Assembly (NCBI GenBank): GCA_965216915.1 | Contig: CBDCGS010000011.1 | Coordinates: 195,404-259,403, forward strand | Length of the DNA stretch: 64,000 bases | Source: Alphaproteobacteria bacterium | Lineage (GTDB): Bacteria > Pseudomonadota > Alphaproteobacteria > UBA828 | Direction: 5' to 3' | Part shown: piece by piece, positions 7,732 to 55,489 of the stretch | Layout: every line of letters begins with the position of its first letter | How positions within the stretch are numbered: the stretch's first letter is position 1 | The notes under the pieces: model-generated | Seen by the model: only the letters and a program-made list of their open reading frames with translations | Told to the model about the DNA's origin: nothing | Databases searched by the model: none | Made by a program: the position numbers and the translations under genes

Positions 7732-7799
7732 TCCCGACGCCCGCTATCGCGCCCGCCGCTAATCGGACGGGCAGGACGGTTCTCAGGAGGCGCTTAGCT

Positions 7800-9260: not shown

Positions 9261-9277
9261 GGCGGCTCTCCTTGGGA

Positions 9278-10552: not shown

Positions 10553-10631
10553 CGTTCTCGCTCGCTCGATTGCATGGCTGGTGCCCGCATGATAGTTTGG
10601 ACCCGAACGATTTGTCCAGCGGGGGAGATGC

Positions 10632-13182: not shown

Positions 13183-13299
13183 CCCCGCCGCCTCTTCCGC
13201 GCGAAGACGCGCTCGTCCGCGCCGCGCTCCAGTGCTAGGCTCCCGCCCCAGAGCGCCGCGAGCGCGGCGCATCGAATGTCGCATGTGAGGGAGGGATTC

Positions 13300-15129
13300 A
13301 TGGCGTGGCAGGGACAGTTATTGCGGGTCGATCTCACGGCGGGCACCTGTGTCGGTGAACCCCTCAACTCCGCGTGGGCGGCGCAGTATCTGGGCCAGCG
13401 CGGGCTCGCGACCAAATACCTTGCGGAGGAGATGGACCCGAAGGCGGATCCACTCTCGCCGGAGAACAAGCTGATCTTTGCGACCGGCCCCTTGACAGGG
13501 ACCGGCGCGCCGACCGGCGGGCGCTACTCGGTCATCACGAAGGGGCCCCTCACCAATGCCATCGCCTGCTCCAATTCCGGCGGCTACTTCGGCGGCGAGC
13601 TGAAGCTCGCCGGCTGGGACATGGTCATCTTCGAGGGCAAGGCGAAGAAGCCCGTCTATCTCTACATCAAGGACGACCACGCCGTGTTGCTGCCCGCCAA
13701 GGGCTTCATCTGGGGCAAGTCGGTGTGGGATACTGAGCCGCTGCTCAAGGCGCGCCATCAGGACCCTGCGATCAAGGTCGCCTCGATTGGCCGCTCGGGC
13801 GAAACCCTAGTGCGCTACGCCTGCGTCGTGAACGACATGGATCGCGCGGCCGGACGCTCGGGCGTCGGTGCCGTCATGGGCTCGAAGAACCTCAAGGCGA
13901 TCGCCGTGCGCGGCACCAAGGGCGTCTCGGTGAATGACCCGAAGGCCTTCATGGCGGCGATCGCCCACGCCAATTCGGTCCTGCAGCCGAGCGAGGCCCG
14001 CGCCGGGCTCGCGAAAACCGGCACACTTTCGATGATCGATGTCACCCAGTCGTTCGGCAGCCTGCCTACGCGCAATAATCGGGACATCCAGTTCGAGGGC
14101 GCGAACAAGCTCGGCCCGGCCGCGATGGCGGCGCGCCGCCGCACCGACGGCGAAGCGAACCTCATGACCAACAAGGCTTGCTTCGGCTGCACGATCGGCT
14201 GCGGCCGCGTCGCGAAGATGGATCCCGGCCATTTCGCCATCGGGGAAAACGAGCGCTACCGCAAGCCCTCCGGCGGGCTCGAGTATGAATCGGCCTATGC
14301 GCTCGGGCCCATGGTCGGTGTCGACGACATCGAGGCCGCGACCTACGCCAACTTCATTTGCAACGAGCAGGGCATGGACCCGATCTCGTTCGGCGCGACC
14401 GTCTCGGCTGCCATGGAGCTTTATGAGACCGGCGCGATCTCGGACAAGGAGACCGGCGGCATCGCCTACCGGTTCGGCTCGGCGGAGGCGCTTTGCACGG
14501 CCGCCGACCAGGCCGGCACCGGCGAGGGCTTCGGCGCGGACCTCGGGCTTGGCGCGAAACGGCTCTGCGAAAAATATGGCCATCCCGAGTTCGCCATGGT
14601 CGCCAAGGGACAGGAGTTCCCCGGCTATGACGGGCGCTCGATGCAAGGCATGGCTCTCGCCTATGCCACCAGCAACCGCGGTGCCTGCCACCTGCGGGCC
14701 GACCCCTACGAGGACGATTTCTCCGGCGGCAAGCTGAAGGGCAAGGCCGAGATCGTGAAAACGTCGCAGGATCAGGTCGCTGCCATCGATTCGACCGGCC
14801 TTTGCCTCTTCCCGATGGGCGCGTGGGGCTTCCAGGAGGTCTCGAGCCTCGTCGACGCGGCGTGCGACGGCGATTGGAGCGTCGAGAATTTGCGCCTCGT
14901 CGGCGAGCGTATCTGGAATCTCGAGCGCCAATTCAATCTGAACGCCGGGTTCACTGCGGCGGACGACACGTTGCCCGATCGCATCCTCAAAGACGCGGCG
15001 AAGAGCGGCACGGGCAAGGGCAGCGTCGCCCAGCTCGACAAGATGCTGCCGCAATATTACGAGCTTCGAGGTTGGACGTCCGGCGGCGAGCCGACGCCGG
15101 AGACGCTCTCCCGCCTCGGCCTCGGATGA
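13300..15129 (+). CDS. aldehyde:ferredoxin oxidoreductase (tungsten/molybdenum-pterin AOR family)
   Basis: About 610 aa with the characteristic AOR N-terminus (GQLLRVDLT...KYLAEEM...LIFATGPLTGTGAPTGGRYSVITKGPLT), internal Cys residues for the 4Fe-4S cluster (CFGCTIGCGR) and C-terminal AOR domains 2/3. Confidence 0.85.
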   Translation: MAWQGQLLRVDLTAGTCVGEPLNSAWAAQYLGQRGLATKYLAEEMDPKADPLSPENKLIFATGPLTGTGAPTGGRYSVITKGPLTNAIACSNSGGYFGGELKLAGWDMVIFEGKAKKPVYLYIKDDHAVLLPAKGFIWGKSVWDTEPLLKARHQDPAIKVASIGRSGETLVRYACVVNDMDRAAGRSGVGAVMGSKNLKAIAVRGTKGVSVNDPKAFMAAIAHANSVLQPSEARAGLAKTGTLSMIDVTQSFGSLPTRNNRDIQFEGANKLGPAAMAARRRTDGEANLMTNKACFGCTIGCGRVAKMDPGHFAIGENERYRKPSGGLEYESAYALGPMVGVDDIEAATYANFICNEQGMDPISFGATVSAAMELYETGAISDKETGGIAYRFGSAEALCTAADQAGTGEGFGADLGLGAKRLCEKYGHPEFAMVAKGQEFPGYDGRSMQGMALAYATSNRGACHLRADPYEDDFSGGKLKGKAEIVKTSQDQVAAIDSTGLCLFPMGAWGFQEVSSLVDAACDGDWSVENLRLVGERIWNLERQFNLNAGFTAADDTLPDRILKDAAKSGTGKGSVAQLDKMLPQYYELRGWTSGGEPTPETLSRLGLG

Positions 15130-16380: not shown

Positions 16381-16461
16381 TTGATTCCGCCTTCCGTGCT
16401 GCCGCCGGCCGCCACCACGGAAGAAGCGACGCCCGGCGGCGCGCGCTTGTCGTGGCCCGTC

Positions 16462-16474
16462 AAATATAGATATT
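16462..16474. promoter_or_regulatory. AT-rich near-palindrome AAATATAGATATT in the Rrf2 / MOSC-NnrS divergent region
   Basis: Lies 82 bp upstream of the Rrf2 start and 106 bp upstream of the MOSC start. It is the only AT-rich stretch in the 200-bp intergenic region. Confidence 0.3.
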
Positions 16475-16579
16475 GTAGCGATGTTTACGCATGACCACGA
16501 TTTCTGTTCCAAGCGCCTCGGACAGCGTCCGGCCGAGCGCTCATATGCAGCACCTGCCACGGGAAGGAGAACAGCGACC

Positions 16580-17425
16580 ATGGAATCGCGAGCGCACGAC
16601 GGCGTGATCGCCACCCTGTGGCGTTACCCGGTCAAATCCATGAACGGCGAGCAGGTGGAAAGCGCCGAGATCGTCGAGGGCGGGATCGTCGGCGATCGCG
16701 GATACGCCTTGATCGACACATCGAACGGCAAGGTCGTGAGCGCGAAATTCCCCAAGAAATGGGGCAAGCTCATTGGCCTCGACGCGGCGTTCACCAGCGA
16801 GCCGAGCGCGAACACCCCGCTGCCGCCCGTTCGGGTGACCTGGCCGAACGGTGAGACCGCGACGAGCGGGGTGGATGACCTCGATGCGAGGCTGACCGAG
16901 ATCGTGGAGCGCGCCGTCACTATGACCACCGCACGACCGCAAGAGGTGAGCCTGGAGCGCCTCGACCCCCTCGCCGAGGGCGAGGAGATTCTCGACATTG
17001 GCGAGCTCATGATGGAGGGGCGGTTCTCCGACTACGCGGCGCTTCATCTGATCACCACCTCCACGCTCACGCGCCTGGGGGAACTTCGTCCGGAGTCGCA
17101 ATTCGACGCGCGCCGGTTCAGGCCGAACATCGTCGTGGACACCGGCGCCGCCGCGGGTTTCGTCGAAAATGACTGGGTCGGCCGCACGATCGCGTTGGGC
17201 AAGGACGTCCGCATCAGGATTAGCGACCCGACGCCGCGCTGCTCCATCCCGACACTGGCCCAAGCGGGGCTCGACAAGGACCCCAAGGTCCTGCGCACCA
17301 TCGTCGAGCATAATCAGCTCCCGGTCCCGCTCCTCGACAATGAAATGCTGCCCTGCGCGGGCGTCTATGGCTTCGTGCTCCAAGGCGGGACGGTGCGCCG
17401 CGGAGACCCCATTCACGTCACCTAA
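16580..17425 (+). CDS. MOSC domain-containing protein (YcbX-like)
   Basis: 282 aa from MESRAHDGVIATLWRYPVKSMNGE (MOSC N-terminal beta-barrel), with a conserved Cys in the PTPRCSIPT region. Preceded by a GGGAAGGAGA Shine-Dalgarno sequence. Confidence 0.75.
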   Translation: MESRAHDGVIATLWRYPVKSMNGEQVESAEIVEGGIVGDRGYALIDTSNGKVVSAKFPKKWGKLIGLDAAFTSEPSANTPLPPVRVTWPNGETATSGVDDLDARLTEIVERAVTMTTARPQEVSLERLDPLAEGEEILDIGELMMEGRFSDYAALHLITTSTLTRLGELRPESQFDARRFRPNIVVDTGAAAGFVENDWVGRTIALGKDVRIRISDPTPRCSIPTLAQAGLDKDPKVLRTIVEHNQLPVPLLDNEMLPCAGVYGFVLQGGTVRRGDPIHVT

Positions 17426-20075: not shown

Positions 20076-21800
20076 TCAAGCGAGCTCCGGCGCGCCGCCA
20101 CCGACATGGATCTCGTGCCAAAGTCCAAAGCAGAGCAGCGAAAAGACGAGCTTCGCGGCCTTGCGGTCGAGGGGGGCACCGAGCAGCGTTTCGAGCGCCA
20201 GCGGGTGCACGACCTCCTGAACGCCGTCGTTCTTAGCAAGATAGCGCGCAAGCGTCTCACGCCGGCGGTTTAGCCAATCCTGAATGGGCACGGTGAAGCC
20301 CCGTTTGCGCGCCCACACATCCATCCAATCGCGTTCCGACTTGAGCCAGGCCTTGAGGATGTGCTTGCCGATACGCCCGCGCACCTTGAGCCGGTCGGGA
20401 AGGCCGAACCCGAAGGCCGCGAGCCGCTGGTCGAGATAGGGCACACGCCCCTCGATGCCATGCGCCATGAGGCAACGATCCACCTTGGTCAGAAGATCGT
20501 CGGGCAGCCAGTCCGCGATGTCGCGGGCTTGGCGGCGCTGCAATCGGGTTAGCCCGCTCGCCTCCGCCGGCGGCGCTGGTTGGTGGTTCGCGCTGAGATC
20601 CGCAGTGAACAGCCGCTCGAAGCCGGCAAGGTCACCGCGTCCACGAAAGGGCCGGCGGCGCAGCGTGTCCCACCAGCCGCGCCGGTAGCGGCCATAGCCC
20701 GCGAAGATCTCGTCGCCCCCTTCGCCCGACAGGATGACCTTCACGTGGGGCGCGGCCGCTTCAGCCAGCTTGAGCAGCGGCAGCGCGGCGTAGTCGGCGA
20801 CGAGGTCGTCCATGGCGCGGCACATCGCCGGCAGGCCGGACCAAAAATCGTCCTCGTCGAACAGAACGGCCGTGTGGTCGGTGCCAAGCTCGCGCGCGAG
20901 CCGCTCGGCGACGGCGCGCTCGTCGCTCACGGTCGCGCTGGCGAAGCCGATCGTAAAGGTGCGGATCGTGCCGGCGACCGCGGCCATCTTGATGACCATC
21001 GCGGACGAATCGATGCCGCCGGACAGAAACGCCCCGTAGGGCACCTCTGATTGCAGATGCCGCTCGACCGCCTCTGCGAGATGACCGTCGAGCATGCGCA
21101 TGGCGTCCGCGTGACGTTGCGGCCCGCCGAGCGGCGGCGGATGGCGCGTGCGCGACACGATTGCCCCGTCGCGCACCACAAGCACCTCACCCGGCAGCAC
21201 CCGCTCGATCCCGGCGAACAGGGTGTCACGGCCGGCAAGATATTGGCGGTTCAAGAATGGCCCGAGCCCGGCGCGGTTGACCGCCGCCGGCCGGAGTCCC
21301 GCCTTGGTGAGGGCCGCGGGCTCGGAGGCGAAGGCGAAGCCCGCGTCGGTGCGCGCGTAGTAAAGCGGCTTGATGCCGAACGGATCGCGGCAGAGCACGA
21401 GGGTCCGGCTCGTCTCGTCGTAGATCGCGAGCGCGTACATCCCTTCGAGCCGATTGACGAACGCGGCCCCGTGGCGAGCGTAGAGGTGGAGGGCGGTTTC
21501 GGTATCCGAGCGTGTCTTGAGGCTAACGCCGGCGGCCTCGAGCTCTCGCTGCAATGCCACAAAATTGTAGATCTCGCCGTTGCCGACGATGTGGATCTTG
21601 TCGTGACGGTCGCTGATCGGTTGTGCGCCGCCCGTGACATCGATGATGCTGAGCCGCCGGTGCACGAGCCCGACATTGCCCGAAACGTAGACCCCCTTGC
21701 CGTCGGGCCCGCGATGGGCGAGGGCATCCGAGAGCGCCCGGAGCGCCACCGGCGCGACCTGTTTCCCTGCCGCAAGCGACAGCCCCGCGATGCCGCACAC
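20076..21800 (-). CDS. asparagine synthase (glutamine-hydrolysing) family amidotransferase
   Basis: MCGIAGL N-terminal nucleophile (Cys2) of class II glutaminases, followed by an SGGIDSS PP-loop ATP-pyrophosphatase motif. 574 aa. Confidence 0.9.
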   Translation of the reverse strand: MCGIAGLSLAAGKQVAPVALRALSDALAHRGPDGKGVYVSGNVGLVHRRLSIIDVTGGAQPISDRHDKIHIVGNGEIYNFVALQRELEAAGVSLKTRSDTETALHLYARHGAAFVNRLEGMYALAIYDETSRTLVLCRDPFGIKPLYYARTDAGFAFASEPAALTKAGLRPAAVNRAGLGPFLNRQYLAGRDTLFAGIERVLPGEVLVVRDGAIVSRTRHPPPLGGPQRHADAMRMLDGHLAEAVERHLQSEVPYGAFLSGGIDSSAMVIKMAAVAGTIRTFTIGFASATVSDERAVAERLARELGTDHTAVLFDEDDFWSGLPAMCRAMDDLVADYAALPLLKLAEAAAPHVKVILSGEGGDEIFAGYGRYRRGWWDTLRRRPFRGRGDLAGFERLFTADLSANHQPAPPAEASGLTRLQRRQARDIADWLPDDLLTKVDRCLMAHGIEGRVPYLDQRLAAFGFGLPDRLKVRGRIGKHILKAWLKSERDWMDVWARKRGFTVPIQDWLNRRRETLARYLAKNDGVQEVVHPLALETLLGAPLDRKAAKLVFSLLCFGLWHEIHVGGGAPELA

Positions 21801-21809
21801 GAAGGGTGA

Positions 21810-23156
21810 CTATTCCGCGGCGCTGCGATCGCTGAAGGTCGGGTCGATCACCTCGGGAAGATGCGCGGTGCGATGCGGGATGAGCGCGTCGGAGCCGCTG
21901 ACGACCGAGCGCGCCGGTTCCGCGGGCATGCCGACCGTGCTCGCGCGCTCGGCATAGGTGGCACCGATCGGACGGTCGCGGCGCATATAGTCGGGCTTGC
22001 CGTCGGCAGCGCGGAAATGGGGGATCACCTCCTCCGCGAAGATCTGCATGTTCTTCGTGACCATCCAGTTCGGCATCGGCCCGATGGGCGAGCCGGCGAG
22101 CACCATGCCGCCCGCGCCAAGCTCCTCGCAATAGGCGGCATATTTGTCGATAACCGTCTGCGGCGAGCCGACGATGATGTAGCCGTCCTCCAGCATCTCG
22201 TCGTAGCTGAGCTCCGAGATCGGCTTGAGGTTGTACTTCATGATCGCGCCCATGAAGTTGGCGAAGGAGGGCTTCGACATGTAGCCGGCCGGGAAATAGA
22301 TCTGCCACGGAATCTTGAGACCGGTGTTGAACACCCAGGAGATATGCGCCTTCGCCTCGCGATGGGCCTGCTCGTCGGTCTCCGCGACATAGGTCGGCAC
22401 GCAGGCGTTGAACTGGTCGTCGGTCGCCTCGTAGCCGAAATCGGTTTCCGCGATCTTGCGCAGGAGGTCGAAGCTCTTCTTGTGGAACCAGGACGGAGCG
22501 AAGATCGCGAGGTAAGTGTAGCGGTACTCCGCCACCTTGCGGATCGTCTCGAACGAGCCGTGGCCGGGAATCCAGATCGGCGGATGCGGCGTCTGCAGCG
22601 GGCGCGGCCAAGGATTGACGTTCGGAATATGGAAGTGGTCGCCCTGCCACGTGAAGGGGCCATCCTCCGTCCACGCCTTGATGATTAAGTCATGCGCCTC
22701 CCAGAAGCGCTCGACCGAGGCCGTCGGCGAGACCGGATTGTTGAAATATTCGGGGCCGATGCCGCGCACGAAGCCTGAGATGATGCGCCCGCCCGAGATC
22801 ACGTCGAGCATCGCGATTTCCTCGGCAACGCGGAGCGGGTTTCCGTGGAGCGGGATGGCATTGCCGACGATGCCGATCGGGATGTCGCGGGTGCGCTGCA
22901 CGAGCATCGCCGCGATGAGGTTGGGCGCCGGCATGGTGCCGTAGGCGTTGGCATGGTGCTCGTTGACGATCACCGAGTCGTAGCCGTAGCGCTCTGCCGC
23001 GACGAGCTGTTCGATATACTCGTTGTAGAGCTGGTGCCCCTGCTTGGGATCGTAATGCGCGTTCGAGAGCGTTCCCCAAGTCGACGGGAACGTTTCCGTC
23101 GGCGGCAGGTACGGATAGGGCATTAGGTGGAAAAAGTGGAACCTGAGCTTGTTCAT
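21810..23156 (-). CDS. LLM-class flavin-dependent oxidoreductase (luciferase-like monooxygenase)
   Basis: 448 aa TIM-barrel LLM pattern (VIVNEHH...GNPLRVAEEIAMLDVISGGR). Its start overlaps the stop of the upstream hydrolase gene. Confidence 0.85.
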   Translation of the reverse strand: MNKLRFHFFHLMPYPYLPPTETFPSTWGTLSNAHYDPKQGHQLYNEYIEQLVAAERYGYDSVIVNEHHANAYGTMPAPNLIAAMLVQRTRDIPIGIVGNAIPLHGNPLRVAEEIAMLDVISGGRIISGFVRGIGPEYFNNPVSPTASVERFWEAHDLIIKAWTEDGPFTWQGDHFHIPNVNPWPRPLQTPHPPIWIPGHGSFETIRKVAEYRYTYLAIFAPSWFHKKSFDLLRKIAETDFGYEATDDQFNACVPTYVAETDEQAHREAKAHISWVFNTGLKIPWQIYFPAGYMSKPSFANFMGAIMKYNLKPISELSYDEMLEDGYIIVGSPQTVIDKYAAYCEELGAGGMVLAGSPIGPMPNWMVTKNMQIFAEEVIPHFRAADGKPDYMRRDRPIGATYAERASTVGMPAEPARSVVSGSDALIPHRTAHLPEVIDPTFSDRSAAE

Positions 23157-24028
23157 GACGCGGCTCCTTGGACGAACTCGACGAGCGCGGCGGCGGTCGC
23201 ATCGGGCCGCTCAACGATCAGCGCGTGGCCGGTCTCCGGGATCGTGACGTGCCGGCAATCCGGCAGGTGGGAGGCGAAGCGCGCCGCCATCGCATTCGGA
23301 ATGAGCCGGTCGTCCTCCGCAGCCAAGACTAGGGACGGGCAGGCGACCCGCCCGAGACGGCGCGGCAGCTTGATGTTGTAGCGGGGCGACCACATGTAGC
23401 GCGCCGCCGCGGATGATTCGCCGAAGAGGAAGATGATGTCCTCGAGCGTGAGCTGCTGCTTCGGATCGAGCGAGGTGATGACCCCGTTCTCGACCACCGC
23501 ATCGGGGATGATCGGCGCGAGCGCGCTCTTGTCGTTGTAGAGCCGGTCGATCAGCTCCTCCGGCGAGATCTTGAACAAATCGACGCCAGGCTCGTCCTCG
23601 ATCCTGAGGCCGACGGGCGTAATCAACGTCAGGCTCTTCAGGCGGCGGAAGAGATAGGACGCATATTCGGCCGCGATCCAGCCGCCCAGCGAATAGCCCA
23701 CCATGTGCACCCGATCGATCTCGAGCGCATCGAGAAACGCGTCATAGTGCAGCGCGAGATCGTCGACCGAGACGATCCAGTCGGCGAGCGGCGTTTCGCC
23801 GAAGCCCGGATGCTCCGGCGCGATGAAATCGACGCTCTGCGCGCAGGCCTCGTAGAAGGGCAGCCACATGCGCGTCGAGCCCGCGCCGTGGAGAAACATC
23901 ACCGGCTCGCCCGCCCCCTTGCGCCGGTAGGCGGTCGGCACGCCACCCACATCGACGAAGCTCGGCTCGATGTAGTAGTTCGGTGGCTTGGGCACCGCTT
24001 CCGGCTTCAACGCACCCTCTGCGCCCAT
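23153..24028 (-). CDS. alpha/beta hydrolase fold protein
   Basis: HGAGS oxyanion region and a GYSLGG nucleophile elbow. 291 aa. Confidence 0.8.
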   Translation of the reverse strand: MGAEGALKPEAVPKPPNYYIEPSFVDVGGVPTAYRRKGAGEPVMFLHGAGSTRMWLPFYEACAQSVDFIAPEHPGFGETPLADWIVSVDDLALHYDAFLDALEIDRVHMVGYSLGGWIAAEYASYLFRRLKSLTLITPVGLRIEDEPGVDLFKISPEELIDRLYNDKSALAPIIPDAVVENGVITSLDPKQQLTLEDIIFLFGESSAAARYMWSPRYNIKLPRRLGRVACPSLVLAAEDDRLIPNAMAARFASHLPDCRHVTIPETGHALIVERPDATAAALVEFVQGAAS

Positions 24029-24087: not shown

Positions 24088-25143
24088 CTACGGCAACACC
24101 TTGCGGCGGCGAAACTCGGCGAAGAGGTCGAGGAACATCCGCTCCGTGTCCACCATCTCGGTATAGCCGCGGTCGATGCGCTTGGAATCCGACATGAGAA
24201 CGTCCCAGGACGTGTCCATGTTGAAGTCGAAATAGGGCCAGCCCGCGGTCTTCTCGTAGGGCAAGGGGATCAGGCCATGCTTTTCCACGATGCGCTCCCA
24301 GATCGGGCCTTTGTCGACCATCACCTCGGAGGAGCGGATGCGCTGTGGCATGCCGACCGCCATGCCGAAGAACGCCGCCCAATCGGGCCAGACGTTGACG
24401 TAGCGGAAGCCGTCGCCATTGGTGATGTTGAAGATCTCGTTGGCGGCATTGGGCGAGGTCGCCGACCACACGGTCATGCGCGCGAGAAGCCCCGAATCGG
24501 TCACCTGGTTGATTGCCTCGAAGCCGCCGATCTCGCCCGGATATTTGAGCGGCATGCCGAGCTCTTTCGAGATCGCGGCATAGGTGCCGAAGCACATGAT
24601 GAGGTTCATCGGGTTGCCGACCGCGAAGCCGCAGACGGCCTCGGGCCGCAGCACCGCCCACGACCAGCGCTTGCCCTCCTGAAACGCGATCAGGAAGTCC
24701 TCCTGGTCGTAGTAGAAGTTGGGCGGCATGTGGCGTGAGTCGCTTTCGAAGGCCGGTGTCTTGAAGGGGCCGAGCTGGCGGCCGTAGGCCTTGCTGCCCT
24801 CCTGCAGGACGACACGCTCCAGGCTCGGCGAGACCGCATCCATCACGGTCACCGGGTTGGCGACGAGCTTGCGGTTCTGCTCGGTGGTCGTCGCATCGAT
24901 CCCGCCGTAGAGCGCGCAGCAGAAAACGTGCGTCACGTCGGTGAGGTGGGCGAGCTTGCGCTCGGCCTCCGCCATGTCCAGCAGATCGCACGAGATGAAT
25001 TCGGCCTTCCCGGCCATCTCGTCGTCGGGCGAGCGCCGCGAGACGGCGACGATGTCCCAATCGTCGAGCATCGCCAGGTGGTTGATCAGATTGCGCCCGA
25101 TGACGCCGAGCCCACCGACCACGAGCGCTTTCTTGCGTGCCAT
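24088..25143 (-). CDS. NAD(P)-dependent oxidoreductase, extended SDR / epimerase-dehydratase-like
   Basis: N-terminal ALVVGGLGVIGRNL Rossmann motif; 351 aa. Sits where tmoE would be expected in a tmo operon. Confidence 0.7.
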   Translation of the reverse strand: MARKKALVVGGLGVIGRNLINHLAMLDDWDIVAVSRRSPDDEMAGKAEFISCDLLDMAEAERKLAHLTDVTHVFCCALYGGIDATTTEQNRKLVANPVTVMDAVSPSLERVVLQEGSKAYGRQLGPFKTPAFESDSRHMPPNFYYDQEDFLIAFQEGKRWSWAVLRPEAVCGFAVGNPMNLIMCFGTYAAISKELGMPLKYPGEIGGFEAINQVTDSGLLARMTVWSATSPNAANEIFNITNGDGFRYVNVWPDWAAFFGMAVGMPQRIRSSEVMVDKGPIWERIVEKHGLIPLPYEKTAGWPYFDFNMDTSWDVLMSDSKRIDRGYTEMVDTERMFLDLFAEFRRRKVLP

Positions 25144-25156
25144 GGGAGCGCGGGCC

Positions 25157-25459
25157 CTAAAGCGTTTTCTCGAGGTAGAAGCGGATTTGGTCGTCAGTGG
25201 TCTCGATGCGCCCGGCGAAGGAGGTGAGGTTGATCTCGAGTTCGGAGATCGCGATGGGTCGCCCCAGCGCGCGCGACAGCGTCTCCTGGCGGATCACGCA
25301 CTCGCCGTCCGTTTCGATCCGCACATAGGCAACCTTGTCGTCGATCACGAACTCCTTGCCCGGATTGTCCTCCTGGATCGCCTCGACCACGGCATCCGCG
25401 ACCTCGCCGGCCCGCATCACGGGGCCGACCGCGTTGTTGGTGTCCGTCCGTTCCGCCAT
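25157..25459 (-). CDS. tmoD: soluble diiron monooxygenase effector (coupling) protein, TmoD/MmoB family
   Basis: 100 aa. NNAVGPVMRAGE...DNPGKEF...AYVRIE...ELEINLTSFAGRI...DQIRFY aligns closely with the T4MO effector protein as I remember it. Confidence 0.85.
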   Translation of the reverse strand: MAERTDTNNAVGPVMRAGEVADAVVEAIQEDNPGKEFVIDDKVAYVRIETDGECVIRQETLSRALGRPIAISELEINLTSFAGRIETTDDQIRFYLEKTL

Positions 25460-25478
25460 GTTCGCCCCCGTTTGCGCC

Positions 25479-25814
25479 TCAGGCCTGAGAGAATTTCGGC
25501 TCGACTCCCTCGGTGTCGACGAACACGTCCTCGCCCTCGACCTTCACCGGATATTTCGCAACCTCGGCGTGGCCGGGATTGACGCCCTTGCCCGTCACGA
25601 CGTCGAACTCCCAGAGGTGCATGCAGCAGGTCAGCACCTTGCCCTCCAAGTCACCGTCCGCGAGCTCGACCTCCTGATGGGGGCAATTCGACTGGATGGC
25701 GTGCACTCCCTCGCCCTCGACATGGACGAGCAACACATCCGTGCCGCCGACGTCGAAGACCTCCATATCGCCCTCCCACAGATCGTCGAGCGTGCAGACC
25801 TTCTGAAATGCCAT
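25479..25814 (-). CDS. tmoC: Rieske-type [2Fe-2S] ferredoxin of an aromatic monooxygenase
   Basis: 111 aa. CPHQ...CCMHLW Rieske ligands. N-terminal KVCTLDDLWEGDME resembles T4MO ferredoxin TmoC. Confidence 0.85.
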   Translation of the reverse strand: MAFQKVCTLDDLWEGDMEVFDVGGTDVLLVHVEGEGVHAIQSNCPHQEVELADGDLEGKVLTCCMHLWEFDVVTGKGVNPGHAEVAKYPVKVEGEDVFVDTEGVEPKFSQA

Positions 25815-25817
25815 GTG

Positions 25818-26105
25818 CTATTCCGCCGGTTCGTCGAAGTATTCGTCGAAGTAGATGTCGATGCTGTCGAAATAGGCGATCCCGGCGGCCTCCGCCGTCA
25901 TCTCGCGCGGCCAAGGCGGCGCGTCATTGGTCTCGGTGGTGGGGCGCACGCGCAAGACCTTGTCGGGCCGCGGCGCGACGTGCAGATCGATCGAGTGCTC
26001 AGCGCACGCCGCCGCCACCTCGTCCATGGTCAGCTCCGGCGCGATCTCGACGACCTTGATATGGCAGTCGTACTGGAAGCGCGACAGGATCGGAAACGCC
26101 GCCAC
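25818..26105 (-). CDS. tmoB: aromatic monooxygenase hydroxylase gamma subunit (TmoB-like)
   Basis: 95 aa. MAAFPI...HVAPRPDKVLRVRP...PREMTAEAAG matches the TmoB pattern MSAFPV...RVAPREGVMRVRK...PRDMTIAESG as recalled. Confidence 0.7.
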   Translation of the reverse strand: MAAFPILSRFQYDCHIKVVEIAPELTMDEVAAACAEHSIDLHVAPRPDKVLRVRPTTETNDAPPWPREMTAEAAGIAYFDSIDIYFDEYFDEPAE

Positions 26106-26132
26106 GAAACTCGCTCCTCGCTGTGGGCTCGC

Positions 26133-27623
26133 CTATTCCGCGGCCTGCGCGCGGAAGCCGTCGATCCAGCGATAGTCGGCGCCGTCGCGCCCGCCCTCGC
26201 TCACCACGCCGATGCCCATATAGAGCAAAACGTTGTCGAGGGTGGGCGGGTCGATCTCGCCCGAATACATGCGGTCGACGATCGTCTCGTGCTTCTTGTA
26301 GCGGTCGGGGTCGGTGGTGAAGATCCACCGGCAGACCTCGGTGCAGAAATTGTGGCGCCGCCCCTCATGCTCCAGCTGGTAGGCCCGCGCCTTCCAGGGC
26401 TCGCCGGGCCGGTTGGAGATCGGGATCTGGCACATGTTGCAGATGATCGGGATGCAGTTCGGGTGTGTCTTCTCCTCGTGCCCCGCCAGGAGGTTGTTGG
26501 TGATCACGTCCCAATAGGTGCCGAAGGAGGCGTTCCAGCCCGGATATTTTTCCTCCAGCCACTCCCGCTCCGCCGGGCCCACATTGCCGGGCGGGTTCCA
26601 CCAGACGGTTGGGCGCCACGACCAGATGCCGCCTTGCTGGCAATGATGGTGGTTCTCGATGTCGTCGAGGAAAAGGTCCCAATACCAGGGCCGCTCGAGG
26701 CCGATGTCGGCCACCTGACGGTCATACTGGCGGATGATCCACTCGTGCATGAACTCCTTGAACGACATGTGCCGCTGCTCGAGCGGGATGTAGTAGTCCA
26801 TGGGGATGCCGACGGCGATGGCGAAGAGCCGCCACATGCGCCAGAACGCGACGTCCAGGGCCTGCTGCGCCTCGGCCTTCTTGCCGTTGCGGATCATGAT
26901 TTCGATCGTCGGCGTGCCGAGCTGGGCGTGGCGCGCCTCGTCCGACTGGATGCTCGTGATCAGGTTCGCGAAGGTGTAATCGCCCATGTTGGCGGCGTCC
27001 GTCGACAGCCCGATCATTTGCAGGTTGGTGAGGCCGGTTTCGAAGGCGAACGAGACCATGACCGAGCCCGTGATCGCATCCCGCGACATCATGATGTCGT
27101 CGATGGCATGGCGCCCGCCGAGGATCGCCCAGTTTTTCGTATGCGCCGCCTGGTGCGCCCAATCGAAATGGCGGTTCATCGAGACCAGCTCGTGCGGGAA
27201 ATAGAGCTGGAGCTGCGCGTGACGCATCTCGTCGAGCATGCCGTAGGTCGCCATGTTGCGCATGCTCGGCGAGGGGCCGAAGCGCGCCATCCGCGCCTGG
27301 AACTGGCAGGCCTGATACTCCGTCAGCGCAACAATACCGTAGTGCAGCTTGAGCACGCTCGCCCAGCCTTCGTCCGCCTGCTCGTAGAAGCGCGAGCGGG
27401 CGAGCGCCGCCTTGACCGAATAGGCGCTCGAATCCTTCTCCCGCTGGACCTTCACATACTCGCGATAGGAGACCTTGTAGGGTTCGTCGAAGCTCTCCCA
27501 TTCACTCACCGGGATGCCGTAGGGATCGCTCATCCCGGGTGGGAACAGCTCTTCGGCGGACACGTATTTCGGCGTCCAGTTGGTGTCCCGCGCGATGTCG
27601 TACCAGGCGGACCGGTCAAGCAT
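26133..27623 (-). CDS. tmoA: soluble diiron monooxygenase hydroxylase alpha subunit (toluene-4-monooxygenase TmoA-like)
   Basis: Two diiron ExxH motifs (LDEMRHAQL and SDEARHAQL). N-terminal MLDRSAWYDIARDTNWTPKY resembles TmoA. Start ATG at 27623 is preceded by AGGAGG at -7; the ORF track's 27671 is a TTG further upstream. Confidence 0.9.
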   Translation of the reverse strand: MLDRSAWYDIARDTNWTPKYVSAEELFPPGMSDPYGIPVSEWESFDEPYKVSYREYVKVQREKDSSAYSVKAALARSRFYEQADEGWASVLKLHYGIVALTEYQACQFQARMARFGPSPSMRNMATYGMLDEMRHAQLQLYFPHELVSMNRHFDWAHQAAHTKNWAILGGRHAIDDIMMSRDAITGSVMVSFAFETGLTNLQMIGLSTDAANMGDYTFANLITSIQSDEARHAQLGTPTIEIMIRNGKKAEAQQALDVAFWRMWRLFAIAVGIPMDYYIPLEQRHMSFKEFMHEWIIRQYDRQVADIGLERPWYWDLFLDDIENHHHCQQGGIWSWRPTVWWNPPGNVGPAEREWLEEKYPGWNASFGTYWDVITNNLLAGHEEKTHPNCIPIICNMCQIPISNRPGEPWKARAYQLEHEGRRHNFCTEVCRWIFTTDPDRYKKHETIVDRMYSGEIDPPTLDNVLLYMGIGVVSEGGRDGADYRWIDGFRAQAAE

Positions 27624-27643
27624 GGCAAACCTCCTGGACACGG

Positions 27644-27672
27644 CGCCGCGGCGCTGCGTCGGCGTGCCCAAA
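27644..27672 (-). promoter_or_regulatory. candidate sigma-54 (-24/-12) promoter for the tmoA operon
   Basis: The minus strand reads TTGGGCACGccgaCGCAGC, which matches GG-N10-GC spacing with 5/6 of TGGCAC. It lies about 20-45 nt upstream of the tmoA ATG. The match is only partial. Confidence 0.2.
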
Positions 27673-27813
27673 ACCCATCGATCTGTCAGGGCATTGTCGG
27701 TTCAGACGGGCGTGAAAGGCAAGCGTTTCGGCCTCAGACGCCCCTCTTGAACGCACGCCATGGGCCGGGCATCGTGCGGACTCGCGTGCGACATCGAGGC
27801 AGGGAGGCAAATC

Positions 27814-29166
27814 GTGGCCCAACGGCGGAAACACAGTGGCGGGCGTGGCGGCATCCAAACTGCGCTCGCCGCGCTGAAGAAGGACGGCATCCAGCACATC
27901 CGGTTCGAGCTTCCAGACATGCATGGCAGCGCGCGCTCCAAGCAGGTGCCCGTGGAGCGCTTTGCCGAGTTCGTCCGCGACGGGGTGAACATGTATGGCG
28001 GCATCGTCGCCCTCGACACGGCCTCCCACGTGATCCCCGGCACCCGCTACAACGAGGAGGTCAAATATCGCGATCAGACCCTGATCGCGGACCTTGCCAC
28101 CCTCCAAACCGTTCCCTGGATCCCCGAGACAGCGCGGGTGATCTGCGACACCCAATGGGCCGACGGCACGCCTCTCCACGGCGCGCCGCGTCACGTTGTT
28201 CGCCGCTTGCTCGATGCCGTCGACGCGCTCGGCTACAAGGCCGTCATGTCCCACGAGTACGAGTTCTATGTGCTCGATTCGGCGAATCACAGGCCGCTCT
28301 TCGAGGGCGTGCACATCTTCAACAACCTCAGAAACGAGCATATCCCGGCGGTCCGCGCCGTGGTCGATGGGCTGCGCGCCGCCGGCCTGCCGATGCTCAC
28401 CGCCAACGCCGAATACGCGCCCTCGCAATACGAGCTCGTCTACAGCCACGCCGAGGGCATGGCCGCCGTCGACAACGCCTACACCTTCAAGAATGCCGTG
28501 AAGGAGATCGTGCAGCACGCGGGGCACACCGCGACCTTCATGTCGAAGCCGTTCAGCGACACGGCCGGCTCCGGCTGCCACTTCCACATCAGCTTGGTCG
28601 ACAAGAAAACCGGGCGGAATGTGTTCTACAACCCGCGCAAGCGGGGTGAGATGCCGGATGTCCTGCGCCATTTCGTGCAGGGCATCATCAGTCATGGGCG
28701 CGCCTGCACGGCGCTCTTCAATCCGACCCCCAACTGCTACCGGCGCCTCAGGCCCCACACCTTCGCGCCCTCCAACATTTCCTGGGGCGAGGAGGATCGA
28801 AGCGCCATGGTGCGCATCAAGCGTGCGGGCAGCAATGCCATGCATGTGGAGATGCGGGCCTCCTCGTCCATCAGCAACCCCTATCTCGTGGCCGCGGGCA
28901 CGCTCGCCTGCGGGCTGCTCGGCCTCAAGGAGGCGATGCCGCTCGTCGAGCAAACCGCCGGTCCGAGCGAGGACGACCCGACCCTCCCGCCCTTCCCCGC
29001 CAACCTCGACGCCGCGCTCGACGCGCTCAACGGCGACAGGGCGGTCGTCGACCTGCTGGGCGAGGAATTCGTCGACATCTTCACGACCATGAAGCGCGCC
29101 GAACTCGCGCGTTTCCACACCGAGGTGACCGAGTGGGAGCGGCGTGAATATATCGAGCTCTACTAA
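27814..29166 (+). CDS. glutamine synthetase family protein (GlnA-like; gamma-glutamyl-amine ligase type, e.g. PuuA/GmaS/IpuC-like)
   Basis: GS catalytic domain (beta-grasp N-domain IQHIRFELPDMHG and C-domain motifs). Start proposed at the GTG at 27814, preceded by GGGAGG; the ORF track's ATG at 27760 has no Shine-Dalgarno sequence. Confidence 0.8.
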   Translation: MAQRRKHSGGRGGIQTALAALKKDGIQHIRFELPDMHGSARSKQVPVERFAEFVRDGVNMYGGIVALDTASHVIPGTRYNEEVKYRDQTLIADLATLQTVPWIPETARVICDTQWADGTPLHGAPRHVVRRLLDAVDALGYKAVMSHEYEFYVLDSANHRPLFEGVHIFNNLRNEHIPAVRAVVDGLRAAGLPMLTANAEYAPSQYELVYSHAEGMAAVDNAYTFKNAVKEIVQHAGHTATFMSKPFSDTAGSGCHFHISLVDKKTGRNVFYNPRKRGEMPDVLRHFVQGIISHGRACTALFNPTPNCYRRLRPHTFAPSNISWGEEDRSAMVRIKRAGSNAMHVEMRASSSISNPYLVAAGTLACGLLGLKEAMPLVEQTAGPSEDDPTLPPFPANLDAALDALNGDRAVVDLLGEEFVDIFTTMKRAELARFHTEVTEWERREYIELY

Positions 29167-29636: not shown

Positions 29637-29993
29637 GTGAAGGGAGGAGCCATGAGCGCGCAGGATGCCGGGCGCGGCTGCCACGATGTGGGCGGCCTGC
29701 CCGCCGATCAGGTCGACAGAGCCGAGCATGCCTCGGCGCTCTGGGAGAAGCGGGTCGATGCCTTGATGATGCTGCTCTCCAACCGCTCACGGCGGGTCAT
29801 CACCGTCGATGAGCTGCGGCGCGGCATCGAGGAGCTCGGCGCCGACGCCTACGACCGCATGAGCTATTACGAGCGCTGGATCGCCTCGATCACCCACAAC
29901 CTTTTGGAAAAGGGGGTGATCAGCACCGATGAGCTCGGCCGGCGCATGGCCGAGGTCGAGGCCCGCGGCGATGCCGGGGAGGCGCAACGCTGA
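29637..29993 (+). CDS. nitrile hydratase beta subunit, N-terminal half (split beta)
   Basis: HDVGGLP corresponds to the conserved YDVGG of the NHase beta N-terminus. 118 aa, ending at the natural domain linker. Its stop overlaps the next ATG (ATGA). Confidence 0.7.
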   Translation: MKGGAMSAQDAGRGCHDVGGLPADQVDRAEHASALWEKRVDALMMLLSNRSRRVITVDELRRGIEELGADAYDRMSYYERWIASITHNLLEKGVISTDELGRRMAEVEARGDAGEAQR

Positions 29994-30274
29994 TGGCGCG
30001 CTTCGGGGCCGGCGACACCGTGCGCGTCAGGCGGGCGTTCCCGCCGGGGCACGTGCGCACACCGTATTACATCCGCGGCAAGAGCGGCGTGGTCGAGCGG
30101 CTTTGCGGCGCGTTCGGCAACCCGGAAGAGCTCGCCTTCGGGCGCGACGGCCTGCCCGCGCAGCCGCTTTACCGGGTCCGCTTCGAGCAAGCGACGATTT
30201 GGCCCGACTATGGCGGCCAGGTCGGCGACACGGTCGACGTGGAGCTCTACGAACATTGGCTCGAGCCCGTTTGA
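29993..30274 (+). CDS. nitrile hydratase beta subunit, C-terminal half (split beta)
   Basis: 93 aa. GDTVRVRRAFPPGHVRTPYYIRGKSGVV aligns to the NHase beta C-domain (GDVVRF...GHARRARYVRGKTGTVV) as recalled. Confidence 0.7.
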   Translation: MARFGAGDTVRVRRAFPPGHVRTPYYIRGKSGVVERLCGAFGNPEELAFGRDGLPAQPLYRVRFEQATIWPDYGGQVGDTVDVELYEHWLEPV

Positions 30275-30292
30275 AACAGGAAAGACGCAACC

Positions 30293-30919
30293 ATGAGCGA
30301 GCACCCGCATGATCATGTCCCGCCGCCGGAAGAGGATGGTGCGTTGAGCCACTACCAAATCATGGAAATCGCCGTGCGCGAGCTTCTCGTGGAAAAGGGC
30401 GTGTTCAGCGCCGACGACGTGCGCGCCGAGATCGAGGCGATGGATGCCCGAAGCCCCGCGCAGGGCGCGGCCGTGGTCGCCCGTGCCTGGACGGACCCCG
30501 CGTTCAAGGCCTCTCTCCTGGAAGACGGCACCGCCGCCTGCGCCTCGCTCGGTCTCGACATGGGGCCCATCAATCTGGTGGTCGTCGAGAACACGCCCCA
30601 GGTGCATAACGTGATCGTCTGCACCCTTTGCTCCTGCTACCCACGGTTCCTGCTCGGCATTCCCCCGGCTTGGTACAAATCGAAGGCCTACCGCTCGCGC
30701 GTCGTGCGCGAGCCGCGCACCGTGCTGCGCGAATTCGGCACCGAGCTTCCAGGCGACGTCGCGGTGAGGGTGCATGATTCCACCGCCGACATGCGCTACC
30801 TCGTGTTGCCGATGCGCCCAGCGGGAACCGACGGCTGGTCGCGAGAGGCGCTGGCTGATCTCGTCGGGCGCGACAGCCTGATCGGGGTCACCCTGCCCAG
30901 CCAGCCGGCAAGCGCGTAG
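30293..30919 (+). CDS. nitrile hydratase alpha subunit, cobalt type
   Basis: VCTLCSCYP metal-binding motif; threonine (not serine) in the motif and tyrosine after it indicate Co-type. The downstream PPAWYKS...YRSRVV...RYLVLPMRPAGTDGWS is nearly identical to known NHase alpha subunits. Confidence 0.85.
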   Translation: MSEHPHDHVPPPEEDGALSHYQIMEIAVRELLVEKGVFSADDVRAEIEAMDARSPAQGAAVVARAWTDPAFKASLLEDGTAACASLGLDMGPINLVVVENTPQVHNVIVCTLCSCYPRFLLGIPPAWYKSKAYRSRVVREPRTVLREFGTELPGDVAVRVHDSTADMRYLVLPMRPAGTDGWSREALADLVGRDSLIGVTLPSQPASA

Positions 30920-38901: not shown

Positions 38902-39042
38902 CGCATCCTTGCATGTGAAGCGCAGGCTGCCGGCGAGCGCGTTGGTGGGCGCGGCCAGCCATTCGAAGCGCCGCCCGCGCGGTGATCCTGCTATAACATC
39001 ACCAACACCGCCGCGCAGAAACGGCGACCGAGGGAGGGCACC

Positions 39043-41016
39043 ATGACCGATCCCACGCGCGCGATCCGTCTTTACGGCACCGAGGCGCCAACGCCGGAGG
39101 TGCGCGCGGTGCGCGCAGGCGGCCTCTCGGCCGAGCTCGAAGCCGGAAAGCTGCGTTATGTGCGCCGGGGCGGGCACGAGGCATTGCGCGGCCTCGCCTT
39201 CGTGGTCCGTGGCCCTGGCTGGGAGACCTTCGCGCCCACGCTCACGAACCTTTCGGTCGAGGAATCGGGCGGTGGCTTTCGCATTGGCTACGACGCGCGG
39301 ATCGAGGCGGCCTGCGGCACCCTGACCTTCCGCGCCGAGATCGAAGCGGTCGACGAGAGCGGCTTGCGCTTTTCGATCGAGGGCGCGGCGGAAACCGCGT
39401 TCGAGACCGGCCGCACGGGCTTTGTGGTGCTGCATCCCGTGGAGGGCGTGGCCGGTGCACCATGCCGGATCGACCACACCGACGGCACGCACGAAGATAC
39501 CGTGTTTCCCGACCTCGTGATGCCACTACAGCCCTTTTTCGACATTCGCGCGATGCGGCACCAGGTCGCCCCCGGCCTCTGGCTCACCTGCCACCTCGAT
39601 GGCGCCGACCCCTGGGAGACGGAAGACCAGCGCAATTGGACCGATGCCTCCTACAAGACCTACTTTCGGCCGCTCGCCCTCCCCTTCCCCTATACGCTCG
39701 CGGCCGGCGAGCGGTTTTCGCAAACCGCCGAGCTCCGCTTCGAGGGTGCGCCGCCGGCGTCGGGGCCGACGGCGGGCGGCGACGCGATCGCGGTGCGCGT
39801 CGACGGGCCGACGGGTGCCACGATGCCGCTGGTCGGCCTCGGCGTGCAGGCAAGCCATGCCAATGACGGCCTCGACGATCTCGATCTGATCCGCCCGCTC
39901 GGCGCGCATTATCTCGTTTGCCAATTCAATCCGAGCGCCGGCCACGGCGCGGCCGAGCTTGCCGGCTACCGCGACCTCGCGGCGGCGCTTGGGCTCGACG
40001 TCACGCTCGAAATCGTCGTCCCGTGCGAGCGGCCGGTCGCCGACGAGATTGCCGAGGCAGCGGCTGCTGTCGGCGCGGCGGGGCTCACGCCGGCCTCGGT
40101 GATCGTCGAGCAAAAACGCCTCCTCTATTTCACGCTGGAGACGATCGAGGCACTCGGCATACCAAGCTTCGAGGAAACTTATGCCGCCGCGCGCGCGGCC
40201 TTTCCCGGTGTGCGCCTCGGCGGCGGCGTACTCACGAACTTCACCGAGCTCAACCGCAACCACCCCGATCCGGCGCTCTTCGACTATCTGACCCACAACA
40301 CCTGCGCGGTGGTGCACGAGCCCGACGACCGGTCCGTGATGGAGACGCTGCAGTCCCTGCCCTCGATCGTCGCCACCGCGAAATCGTTCGCGGGCGGCAA
40401 GCCCTATCGCCTCGGGCCAAGCGCGATCGGCATGCGCTTCAACCCGTATGGCCCGAGCACGCACGACAATCAGGACAATGGCCGGCACTCGTTCAACCAG
40501 CAGGACCCGCGCCAGCGCAGTCTCCTTGGCGCGGCGTTCACGCTTGGCTACATGGCGCGCGTCGCGCCGCTCGGCATCGAGGCGATCGCCCTCGGCATGC
40601 CCGCCGGAGAGCTTGGCGCGGTGTACCGCAAGATGGGCCACGAGCAGCCATGGTTCGACACGCTCGCCGGCCCGGCCGTGTTTCCGCTCTATCACATCGT
40701 CGCGGGGATGGCGCAGGCATCGGGCGCGGCCCTGCGGACCGCCGAAAGCGACGACCCGACGCGCGTGCTGGCCCTCGCGCACGAGGTCGCGGGCGGCGGG
40801 ACGCGGCTCTGGCTTGCGAACCTGACCCCATCGCCGCAGCGCGTCGAGGTGGCCGGCGTGCCGTCGGAAGCGATGATCGGCGGCCTCGATGAGGACAAGT
40901 TCGTTGCAGCGACCACCGACCCCCTTGCCTTCCAAGCCGCCGAGGGGCAGACGGGCGATCCGCGCCAAATCTCGCTGAAGCCCTTCGGCATCGCTCGGAT
41001 CACCACCGACGGATAA
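39043..41016 (+). CDS. hypothetical protein (657 aa, no recognised family)
   Basis: Long ORF with protein-like amino-acid composition and no obvious low complexity. No motif I can assign. Confidence 0.5.
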   Translation: MTDPTRAIRLYGTEAPTPEVRAVRAGGLSAELEAGKLRYVRRGGHEALRGLAFVVRGPGWETFAPTLTNLSVEESGGGFRIGYDARIEAACGTLTFRAEIEAVDESGLRFSIEGAAETAFETGRTGFVVLHPVEGVAGAPCRIDHTDGTHEDTVFPDLVMPLQPFFDIRAMRHQVAPGLWLTCHLDGADPWETEDQRNWTDASYKTYFRPLALPFPYTLAAGERFSQTAELRFEGAPPASGPTAGGDAIAVRVDGPTGATMPLVGLGVQASHANDGLDDLDLIRPLGAHYLVCQFNPSAGHGAAELAGYRDLAAALGLDVTLEIVVPCERPVADEIAEAAAAVGAAGLTPASVIVEQKRLLYFTLETIEALGIPSFEETYAAARAAFPGVRLGGGVLTNFTELNRNHPDPALFDYLTHNTCAVVHEPDDRSVMETLQSLPSIVATAKSFAGGKPYRLGPSAIGMRFNPYGPSTHDNQDNGRHSFNQQDPRQRSLLGAAFTLGYMARVAPLGIEAIALGMPAGELGAVYRKMGHEQPWFDTLAGPAVFPLYHIVAGMAQASGAALRTAESDDPTRVLALAHEVAGGGTRLWLANLTPSPQRVEVAGVPSEAMIGGLDEDKFVAATTDPLAFQAAEGQTGDPRQISLKPFGIARITTDG

Positions 41017-45073: not shown

Positions 45074-45110
45074 GCGCGCCACACGCTGTTGAACGAGGGA
45101 GCGAGCGCCC

Positions 45111-55401: not shown

Positions 55402-55489
55402 CGCATCGCTCCTCTAGCCGTTCGGTACCGTGCGAGGACGCAGGCGGCGGTGTGACCGCGATTACTTCCGGCTGCGTCAATCTCACGCA

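Follow-up and report, generated by a model that had tools for sequence, protein, structure and literature searches.

A tmoABCD-like diiron monooxygenase gene cluster without adjacent beta subunit and reductase genes in an alphaproteobacterial contig, and its tmoE-containing relatives

In a 64-kb stretch of alphaproteobacterial DNA (contig CBDCGS010000011.1; "the window" denotes this stretch at its full length), we analyzed a set of tmoABCD-like genes, all located on the minus strand, which resemble those of the toluene monooxygenases T4MO and ToMO. They are followed by a gene for a short-chain dehydrogenase/reductase (SDR) at the position where tmoE, the gene for the beta subunit of the hydroxylase, occurs in related clusters. 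Because tmoE occupies precisely that junction in the closest relatives, the layout of the window is best read as derived and lineage-specific, resulting from a clean excision of tmoE after an earlier loss of the reductase gene tmoF, with both neighbouring genes left intact. Instead of a new enzyme architecture, the gene set most probably represents either a split system or the outcome of a fresh deletion.

The tmoD-SDR junction in related loci

The genes of the operon were located in 62 loci from genomes and in 80 loci from metagenomes, the latter originating from a scan for the SDR. In 5.8 billion protein clusters and 185,579 species genomes (one per GTDB species), the best match to the alpha subunit showed 86-87% identity, and the nearest relatives were uncultured marine or aquatic Alphaproteobacteria (Rhodospirillaceae-like, MarineAlpha10 and Sneathiellaceae). 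The stretch from tmoD to the orthologous SDR gene was complete in 18 related loci, each of which contained tmoE between these two genes, and the alpha subunits of these loci, where present, were 80-87% identical to that of the window. A tmoE gene coding for about 329 amino acids was located directly 5' of the SDR gene in L002, L003, L006, L008, L031, L032, L037, L038, L063, L068, L069, L071, L077, L078 and L149, while tmoE together with a gene for a TmoF-like reductase (in a 1-kb gap) preceded it in L027, L030 and L076, and the TmoF-like reductase gene was its direct 5' neighbour in L070. The SDR orthologues in these loci were 81-89% identical to that of the window. Wherever monooxygenase genes accompanied a close SDR homologue in the 80 metagenome loci, either tmoE or tmoF was found 5' of the SDR gene, and no second tmoD-SDR junction turned up there. 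Among the loci examined, the 13-nt junction occurs only in the window, unlike the arrangement in seven relatives compared at the sequence level.

Because the relatives hold either tmoE or both tmoE and tmoF 5' of the SDR gene, the ancestral arrangement of the clade was presumably tmoABCDEF followed by the SDR gene, with tmoF having been lost from the cluster in most descendants. Indeed, tmoF is absent beside most of the relatives' clusters, so a reductase encoded in trans seems to be the norm in this clade.

The missing tmoE might also reflect an assembly or sequencing artefact which dropped about 1 kb from the record, but we regard this as very improbable. The source may be metagenome-assembled like the closest relatives, and this is the only circumstance speaking for an artefact, which has no direct support. 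On the other hand, the lost segment matches exactly a single gene together with portions of two spacers, both neighbours are intact, no repeat likely to cause a collapse is evident, and the composition is uniform across the junction.

The genes remaining in the window show no detectable decay. There are no frameshifts or stops in tmoABCD, and private substitutions, counted at sites invariant in 27 relatives (28 clade members including the window), amounted to one each in the gamma subunit and the effector protein and to none in the alpha subunit and the ferredoxin, which is no more than in operons that have kept tmoE. The dN/dS ratios of the alpha gene were 0.10 for the window vs. L002 and 0.14 for the window vs. 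L008, compared to 0.11 between L002 and L008, which both possess complete operons. The alpha subunit of the window is placed on its own fairly long branch, representing about 15% amino-acid divergence. If an inactivating deletion had occurred long ago, its traces would be expected along such a branch, so either tmoE was deleted very recently or the remaining genes are in use.

Components present and missing in the window

The genes are arranged in T4MO order, as a preliminary description of this DNA had proposed, and the products match the Pfam families Phenol_Hydrox, TmoB, Rieske and MmoB/DmpM in this sequence. The region has a G+C content of about 64-69%, and the minus-strand genes are tightly packed. 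The open reading frame of the alpha subunit extends to an in-frame TTG at 27671, which is probably not the start codon. The ATG at 27626 is the best candidate, because it is preceded at a distance of 7 nt by the strong Shine-Dalgarno sequence AGGAGG, which had already been pointed out in the preliminary description, and because homologues start at the same MLxR motif as its product. The protein aligns over its full length with the structurally solved alpha subunits of ToMO (1t0q; E=5.5e-200) and T4MO (3dhg; E=1.8e-197), whereas the match to the phenol hydroxylase type is much weaker (E about 1e-46). The two ExxH motifs previously assigned to a diiron center hold up in the alignment to 1t0q, in which all six ligands are kept (E104, E134, H137, E197, E231 and H234). 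The gamma subunit is 52-76% identical to the product of the gene located 3' of tmoA in the relatives, and the [2Fe-2S] ligands of the ferredoxin can be read from the translation as C44, H46, C63 and H66 (CPH...CCMH, conforming to CxH...CxxH). By sequence and gene order, the system belongs to the TMO-type (T4MO/ToMO-like) four-component diiron monooxygenases with four of the six defining components present, and the gene set may confer hydroxylase or epoxidase activity.

The absence of a gene for the beta subunit from the 64 kb, also claimed before, was borne out by all searches. A tblastn search with four beta subunits from relatives (E<=10) retrieved nothing beyond the alpha/beta paralogy, the best match (E=9e-5) being located on the alpha gene itself, and no second Phenol_Hydrox protein was found by Pfam among essentially all coding-like open reading frames of the window. 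The same applies to the reductase. No protein with Fer2, FAD_binding_6 or NAD_binding_1 domains was present among essentially all coding-like reading frames, a six-frame motif scan of the window detected no reductase, and the TmoF-like reductase of L070 used as tblastn query yielded no match in the window at E<=1e-3. Yen and Karl (1992) reportedly found that tmoF is not strictly required for T4MO activity in vivo, which agrees with its being missing from so many of these clusters.

The product of the gene following tmoD was correctly described earlier as a Rossmann-fold SDR rather than a beta subunit. It matches the profile of the PRISE family, extended SDRs resembling progesterone 5-beta-reductase and iridoid synthase, and its N-terminal sequence VVGGLGVIG fits the N-terminal GxxGxxG motif of a Rossmann fold. 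Its position in place of tmoE and its similar length (351 vs. about 329 amino acids) might suggest that it structurally replaces the beta subunit, but the probability of this is close to nil. None of the four beta subunits matched the SDR coordinates in the tblastn search even at E<=10, no Phenol_Hydrox domain was detected in the protein by Pfam, and the SDR is no substitute for the beta subunit because the operons of the relatives contain tmoE alongside the orthologous SDR gene. We therefore rejected this candidate.

A further alternative is a reduced hydroxylase, in which the alpha and gamma subunits would be active together with the ferredoxin and the effector protein without any beta subunit. 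This would fit the absence of a beta gene from the 64 kb and the intact, constrained state of the other genes. However, such an architecture is unseen in characterized members, since the hydroxylase of every characterized soluble diiron monooxygenase is an alpha2beta2 or alpha2beta2gamma2 complex (reviewed in PMC11825192). In addition, no remodelling of the beta interface is visible, as the alpha subunit is unchanged at sites invariant in beta-bearing relatives, the closest relatives all encode a beta subunit, and the one genome with a tmoABCD-only cluster that was inspected further (OY763937.1; see below) encodes it in trans. A functional enzyme without a beta subunit thus appears highly unlikely. 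The preliminary description had left two options, either beta subunit and reductase encoded elsewhere or a reduced architecture embedded in a non-aromatic pathway. The former is now the better supported one, purely by precedent, whereas the reduced architecture is unsupported, with tmoE at the junction in the closest relatives and an equally conserved alpha subunit.

Supply of the missing components

The precedent comes from 15 species-representative alphaproteobacterial genomes which contain tmoABCD without a tmoE gene within 10 kb (L012-L020, L022-L024, L028, L029 and L044). In these clusters, tmoD is followed by housekeeping genes, which code for BolA, a deacetylase and DegP. Their alpha subunits are 82-84% identical to that of the window and form one clade, which is sister to the complete clusters L008, L011, L021 and L025 and stands apart from the branch of the window. 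Because of the separate alpha branches and the different junctions, the tmoE losses in the window and in the tmoABCD-only clade appear to be independent. The dN/dS values of the alpha genes inside this clade are 0.07-0.10, so that a cluster without tmoE in cis represents a stable and selected state. Searching with a beta subunit query, we found a second beta gene on the complete 4.15-Mb chromosome OY763937.1 (L029), an orphan tmoE (P0153) about 33 kb from tmoABCD and located between a gene for a solute-binding protein and a set of thiolase, enoyl-CoA hydratase and acyl-CoA dehydrogenase genes. This arrangement recurs on two other contigs, so that an orphan beta gene heads a conserved operon of this thiolase/enoyl-CoA hydratase/acyl-CoA dehydrogenase type on three contigs in all (L148, 8001-12407; L150, 6001-10343; L151, 6001-10228). 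The orphan beta subunits form a clade of nine clusters at 90% identity with more than 70 member sequences. This clade is sister to the in-cluster beta subunits of L008, L021 and L025, mirroring the alpha tree, and shares 79-82% identity with them, compared to 82% between the beta subunits of L008 and L021. As judged from these comparisons, the beta subunit of the tmoABCD-only group is demonstrably encoded in trans and maintained. Orthologues of the operon headed by the orphan beta gene were not found in the window, which contains only distant paralogues of 33-37% identity and no thiolase.

Other layouts in the clade deviate from the canonical operon as well. L034 (547-5884) and L035 (5262-10602) show the order A-B-A'-B'-C-D-E, and because they possess two alpha/gamma pairs and a single beta gene, one beta subunit would serve two alpha subunits, which are 67% and 76% identical to that of the window. 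In L029 (6885-12500), a divergent alpha'-gamma'-beta set without ferredoxin or effector genes is arranged back to back with tmoABCD. The L149 locus (7281-10070) contains ferredoxin, effector, beta and SDR genes without alpha and gamma genes 5' of them. Instead of these two, it has hydantoinase A/B genes and a truncated GFO/IDH/MocA fragment, with insertion sequence remnants nearby, whereas the rest of the locus is syntenic with L008. Finally, the clusters of L004 and L005 are devoid of a ferredoxin gene. In this clade, the genes for the components are evidently organized in a modular and frequently dispersed way.

Some further peculiarities of the related clusters were recorded. Fusions of alpha and gamma subunits of about 600 amino acids with Phenol_Hydrox, YHS and TmoB domains are represented by P0012, P0017, P0021, P0022, P0023, P0051 and P0099 and are 58-69% identical to the alpha subunit of the window. 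Pairs of hydantoinase A/B-type genes (ATP-dependent carboxylase/lactamase-like) are located directly 5' of the clusters in L001 (5377-9404), L004 (5882-9832) and L149 (2549-6396). In two operons, the gamma and ferredoxin genes are separated by insertions. That in L011 (12430-14486) comprises genes for a SnoaL-like protein and a periplasmic binding protein, and that in L036 (12232-14292) a reading frame of 686 amino acids without Pfam match. The L029 locus with the alpha'-gamma'-beta set and tmoABCD adjoins the ribosomal protein genes rplM and rpsI.

Considering the trans-encoded tmoE of the sister clade together with the intact and constrained genes of the window, we think it somewhat more probable than an even chance that the beta subunit and the NADH:ferredoxin reductase are supplied in trans from a split gene set. 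In this case, a marine-type alphaproteobacterial lineage would have started with an ancestral tmoABCDEF cluster followed by the gene for the PRISE-family reductase and would have lost first tmoF and then tmoE from the cluster, the latter by a clean excision leaving tmoD and the SDR gene 13 nt apart. The enzyme would still assemble as a normal (alpha-beta-gamma)2 hydroxylase, with the beta subunit coming from elsewhere in the genome, either from an orphan tmoE or from a second cluster of alpha, gamma and beta genes. Electrons would pass from a trans-encoded NADH:ferredoxin oxidoreductase to the cis-encoded Rieske ferredoxin, the alpha and gamma subunits would carry the diiron active site, and the effector protein would control the activation of oxygen, by homology to T4MO and ToMO (for the roles of hydroxylase, ferredoxin and effector, see PMC11825192 and PMC9004368).

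Several points weigh against a supply in trans. There is no beta gene within 25 kb on one side and 36 kb on the other side of the cluster, and the physical linkage of tmoABCD with an orphan tmoE was seen in one chromosome only. The alpha and beta trees are neighbour-joining trees without bootstrap. Of about 45 related loci, no other shares the tmoD-SDR junction of the window, which points to a single and possibly recent event, and a recent deletion would equally leave the remaining genes looking intact.

These last points lead to the main rival explanation, a recent inactivating deletion of tmoE in this strain or lineage, after which the hydroxylase could no longer assemble and tmoABCD would be a dying remnant, while the SDR and the downstream genes carry on. 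The junction is found in no other examined locus, and erosion does occur in the clade, as seen from the missing alpha and gamma genes of L149 and the missing ferredoxin genes of L004 and L005. Moreover, the downstream region has been reshuffled, with genes for a hydrolase, a luciferase-like monooxygenase and an AsnB-type protein in place of the 2OG-Fe(II) oxygenase gene, and the AAGGAGG sequence preceding the SDR start in L003 and L006 is gone at the SDR start of the window. Yet the deletion would have to be very recent in view of the lack of frameshifts, stops and private changes at conserved sites despite about 15% divergence. Both of its end-points lie within short spacers and tmoD is intact, which would rather be expected if tmoD was still under selection, and the sister clade shows that tmoABCD without tmoE in cis can be stable and selected. 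We therefore consider an inactivating deletion possible but rather unlikely.

Neighbouring genes and comparison with known systems

The features around the cluster are compiled in Table 1. No sigma-70 consensus was found in the intergenic region between tmoA and the divergent gene for a glutamine-synthetase-like protein, and the promoter and terminator scan was uninformative.

Table 1. Features of the monooxygenase cluster and its surroundings, given in window positions
Feature	Position	Strand	Properties
AsnB-type amidotransferase	20076-21800	-	Pfam E=1.1e-78
Luciferase-like monooxygenase (LLM)	21810-23156	-	Pfam E=7.9e-42
Alpha/beta hydrolase	23153-24028	-	Pfam E=1.6e-22
PRISE-family extended SDR	24088-25143	-	351 aa; Pfam PF22917 E=9.8e-24, 84.5 bits (cut-off 27); Epimerase E=1e-11
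Junction of tmoD stop and SDR start	25144-25156	-	13 nt, GGCCCGCGCTCCC; site of tmoE or tmoE+tmoF in relatives
TmoD-like effector/coupling protein	25157-25459	-	100 aa; Pfam MmoB_DmpM E=1.2e-30
TmoC-like Rieske [2Fe-2S] ferredoxin	25479-25814	-	111 aa; Pfam Rieske E=7.6e-18
TmoB-like gamma subunit	25818-26105	-	95 aa, GTG start; Pfam TmoB E=1.2e-16
TmoA-like hydroxylase alpha subunit	26133-27626	-	497 aa; Pfam Phenol_Hydrox E=4e-75 and C-terminal YHS
Intergenic region between divergent tmoA and glutamine-synthetase-like genes	27627-27759		Contains AGGAGG of tmoA
Glutamine-synthetase-like protein (gamma-glutamyl-amine ligase type)	27760-29166	+	Pfam Gln-synt_C E=1e-85; below all NCBIfam equivalog cut-offs
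Cobalt-type nitrile hydratase	29637-30919	+	CTLCSC motif; beta subunit split into N-half (118 aa) and C-half (93 aa)

Judging by spacing alone, the genes for the hydrolase, the luciferase-like monooxygenase and the AsnB-type protein probably belong to the same operon as tmoABCD and the SDR gene, and they were found beside the monooxygenase genes in none of the 62 related genome loci. The PRISE-family reductase is the only partner conserved across the clade. The relatives often have genes for a 2OG-Fe(II) oxygenase, EamA transporters and a glutamine-synthetase-like protein near the cluster, the last of which is only 33% identical to the glutamine-synthetase-like gene of the window. The latter belongs to a divergent operon for this ligase, a glyoxalase-fold protein, the cobalt-type nitrile hydratase, an amidohydrolase, a transporter and a two-subunit GcvP-like decarboxylase. 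The three-gene layout of the split nitrile hydratase resembles that of thiocyanate hydrolase, and its alpha subunit scores above the NCBIfam cut-off for nitrile hydratase and below that for thiocyanate hydrolase. In L081 (32-3116), a PRISE SDR homologue of 52% identity adjoins an orthologous split nitrile hydratase (69-75% identical), and SDR and nitrile hydratase may represent one functional module independent of the monooxygenase. Genes for an amidase and a GNAT protein are located near this L081 pair.

Because of the conserved PRISE partner and the neighbours from nitrogen metabolism, a pathway other than the classical toluene pathway is suggested, with hints of amine, amide or nitrile chemistry. 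The embedding in a non-aromatic pathway considered in the preliminary description is plausible but unproven.

Other parts of the window contain additional modules. A homogentisate gene set (52248-55413, minus strand) codes for 4-hydroxyphenylpyruvate dioxygenase, a homogentisate dioxygenase-like protein, fumarylacetoacetase and a MarR regulator; it is located 25 kb from the monooxygenase genes, and no other module of the window is clearly devoted to aromatic catabolism. Genes for a tungsten/molybdenum-type aldehyde:ferredoxin oxidoreductase (AFOR_N/C, E=1e-121), a MOSC-domain protein, an Rrf2 regulator and a cytochrome P450 occur near each other (13183-15129 and 16385-17425 on the plus strand, 9278-10864 on the minus strand) in a genome that otherwise looks aerobic alphaproteobacterial. 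Three reading frames had no Pfam match, coding for 676 amino acids (38986-41016, plus strand), 451 amino acids (49910-51265, plus strand) and 409 amino acids (44024-45253, minus strand), of which the latter two have less pronounced coding signals and are possibly not genes at all.

With T4MO (tmoABCDEF of Pseudomonas mendocina KR1) and ToMO (touABCDEF of P. stutzeri OX1), the window shares an alpha subunit alignable from end to end, the six ligands, the C-terminal YHS domain and the gene order alpha-gamma-ferredoxin-effector. It differs from them by the lack of tmoE and tmoF in cis, by the PRISE SDR gene that follows, and by neighbouring genes for amide-, nitrile- and amine-type enzymes instead of aromatic ring-cleavage genes. 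The uncharacterized tmoABCDE(F)-PRISE clusters in metagenome-assembled genomes of marine or aquatic Alphaproteobacteria (e.g., JABIXB010000140.1, PTKB01000010.1, CBDFKL010000006.1) have the same order including the SDR gene and usually no tmoF, but they keep tmoE, and most of them have a 2OG-Fe(II) oxygenase gene after the SDR gene in contrast to the hydrolase, luciferase-like monooxygenase and AsnB-like genes of the window. The tmoABCD-only clusters such as that of OY763937.1 are likewise devoid of a beta gene in cis and under purifying selection, but differ in the junction and in having a relocated tmoE. Isoprene and alkene monooxygenases (isoABCDEF, xamoABCDEF) belong to the TMO-type group and show its six-gene order (PMC11825192); unlike the window, they have full gene sets with a link to glutathione or CoM epoxide pathways, neither of which occurs in the window. 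Multicomponent phenol hydroxylases of the dmpKLMNOP type belong to the same diiron superfamily but lack a Rieske ferredoxin, and their genes are arranged differently. In the literature searched, we found no description of TMO-type clusters that are split or devoid of the beta gene.

Soluble diiron monooxygenases are usually identified by their complete six-gene operons, and genome surveys of hydrocarbon or pollutant oxidation count full tmoABCDEF sets (e.g., PMC13603553). In widespread marine and aquatic Alphaproteobacteria, however, the components appear to be scattered, with tmoF usually off the cluster, tmoE in some cases tens of kb away at the start of an operon resembling those for beta-oxidation, or one beta gene shared by two alpha/gamma pairs. 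Such surveys would record organisms of this kind as having no such enzyme, in spite of the purifying selection acting on the genes they retain. With the window, there are now two independent instances in which tmoE has left the cluster. If the genome was indeed entirely without a beta gene, this would challenge the view of the beta subunit as indispensable. The clade is tied to a PRISE-family reductase and to enzymes for nitrogen compounds, and the substrate of its monooxygenases may not be an aromatic hydrocarbon.

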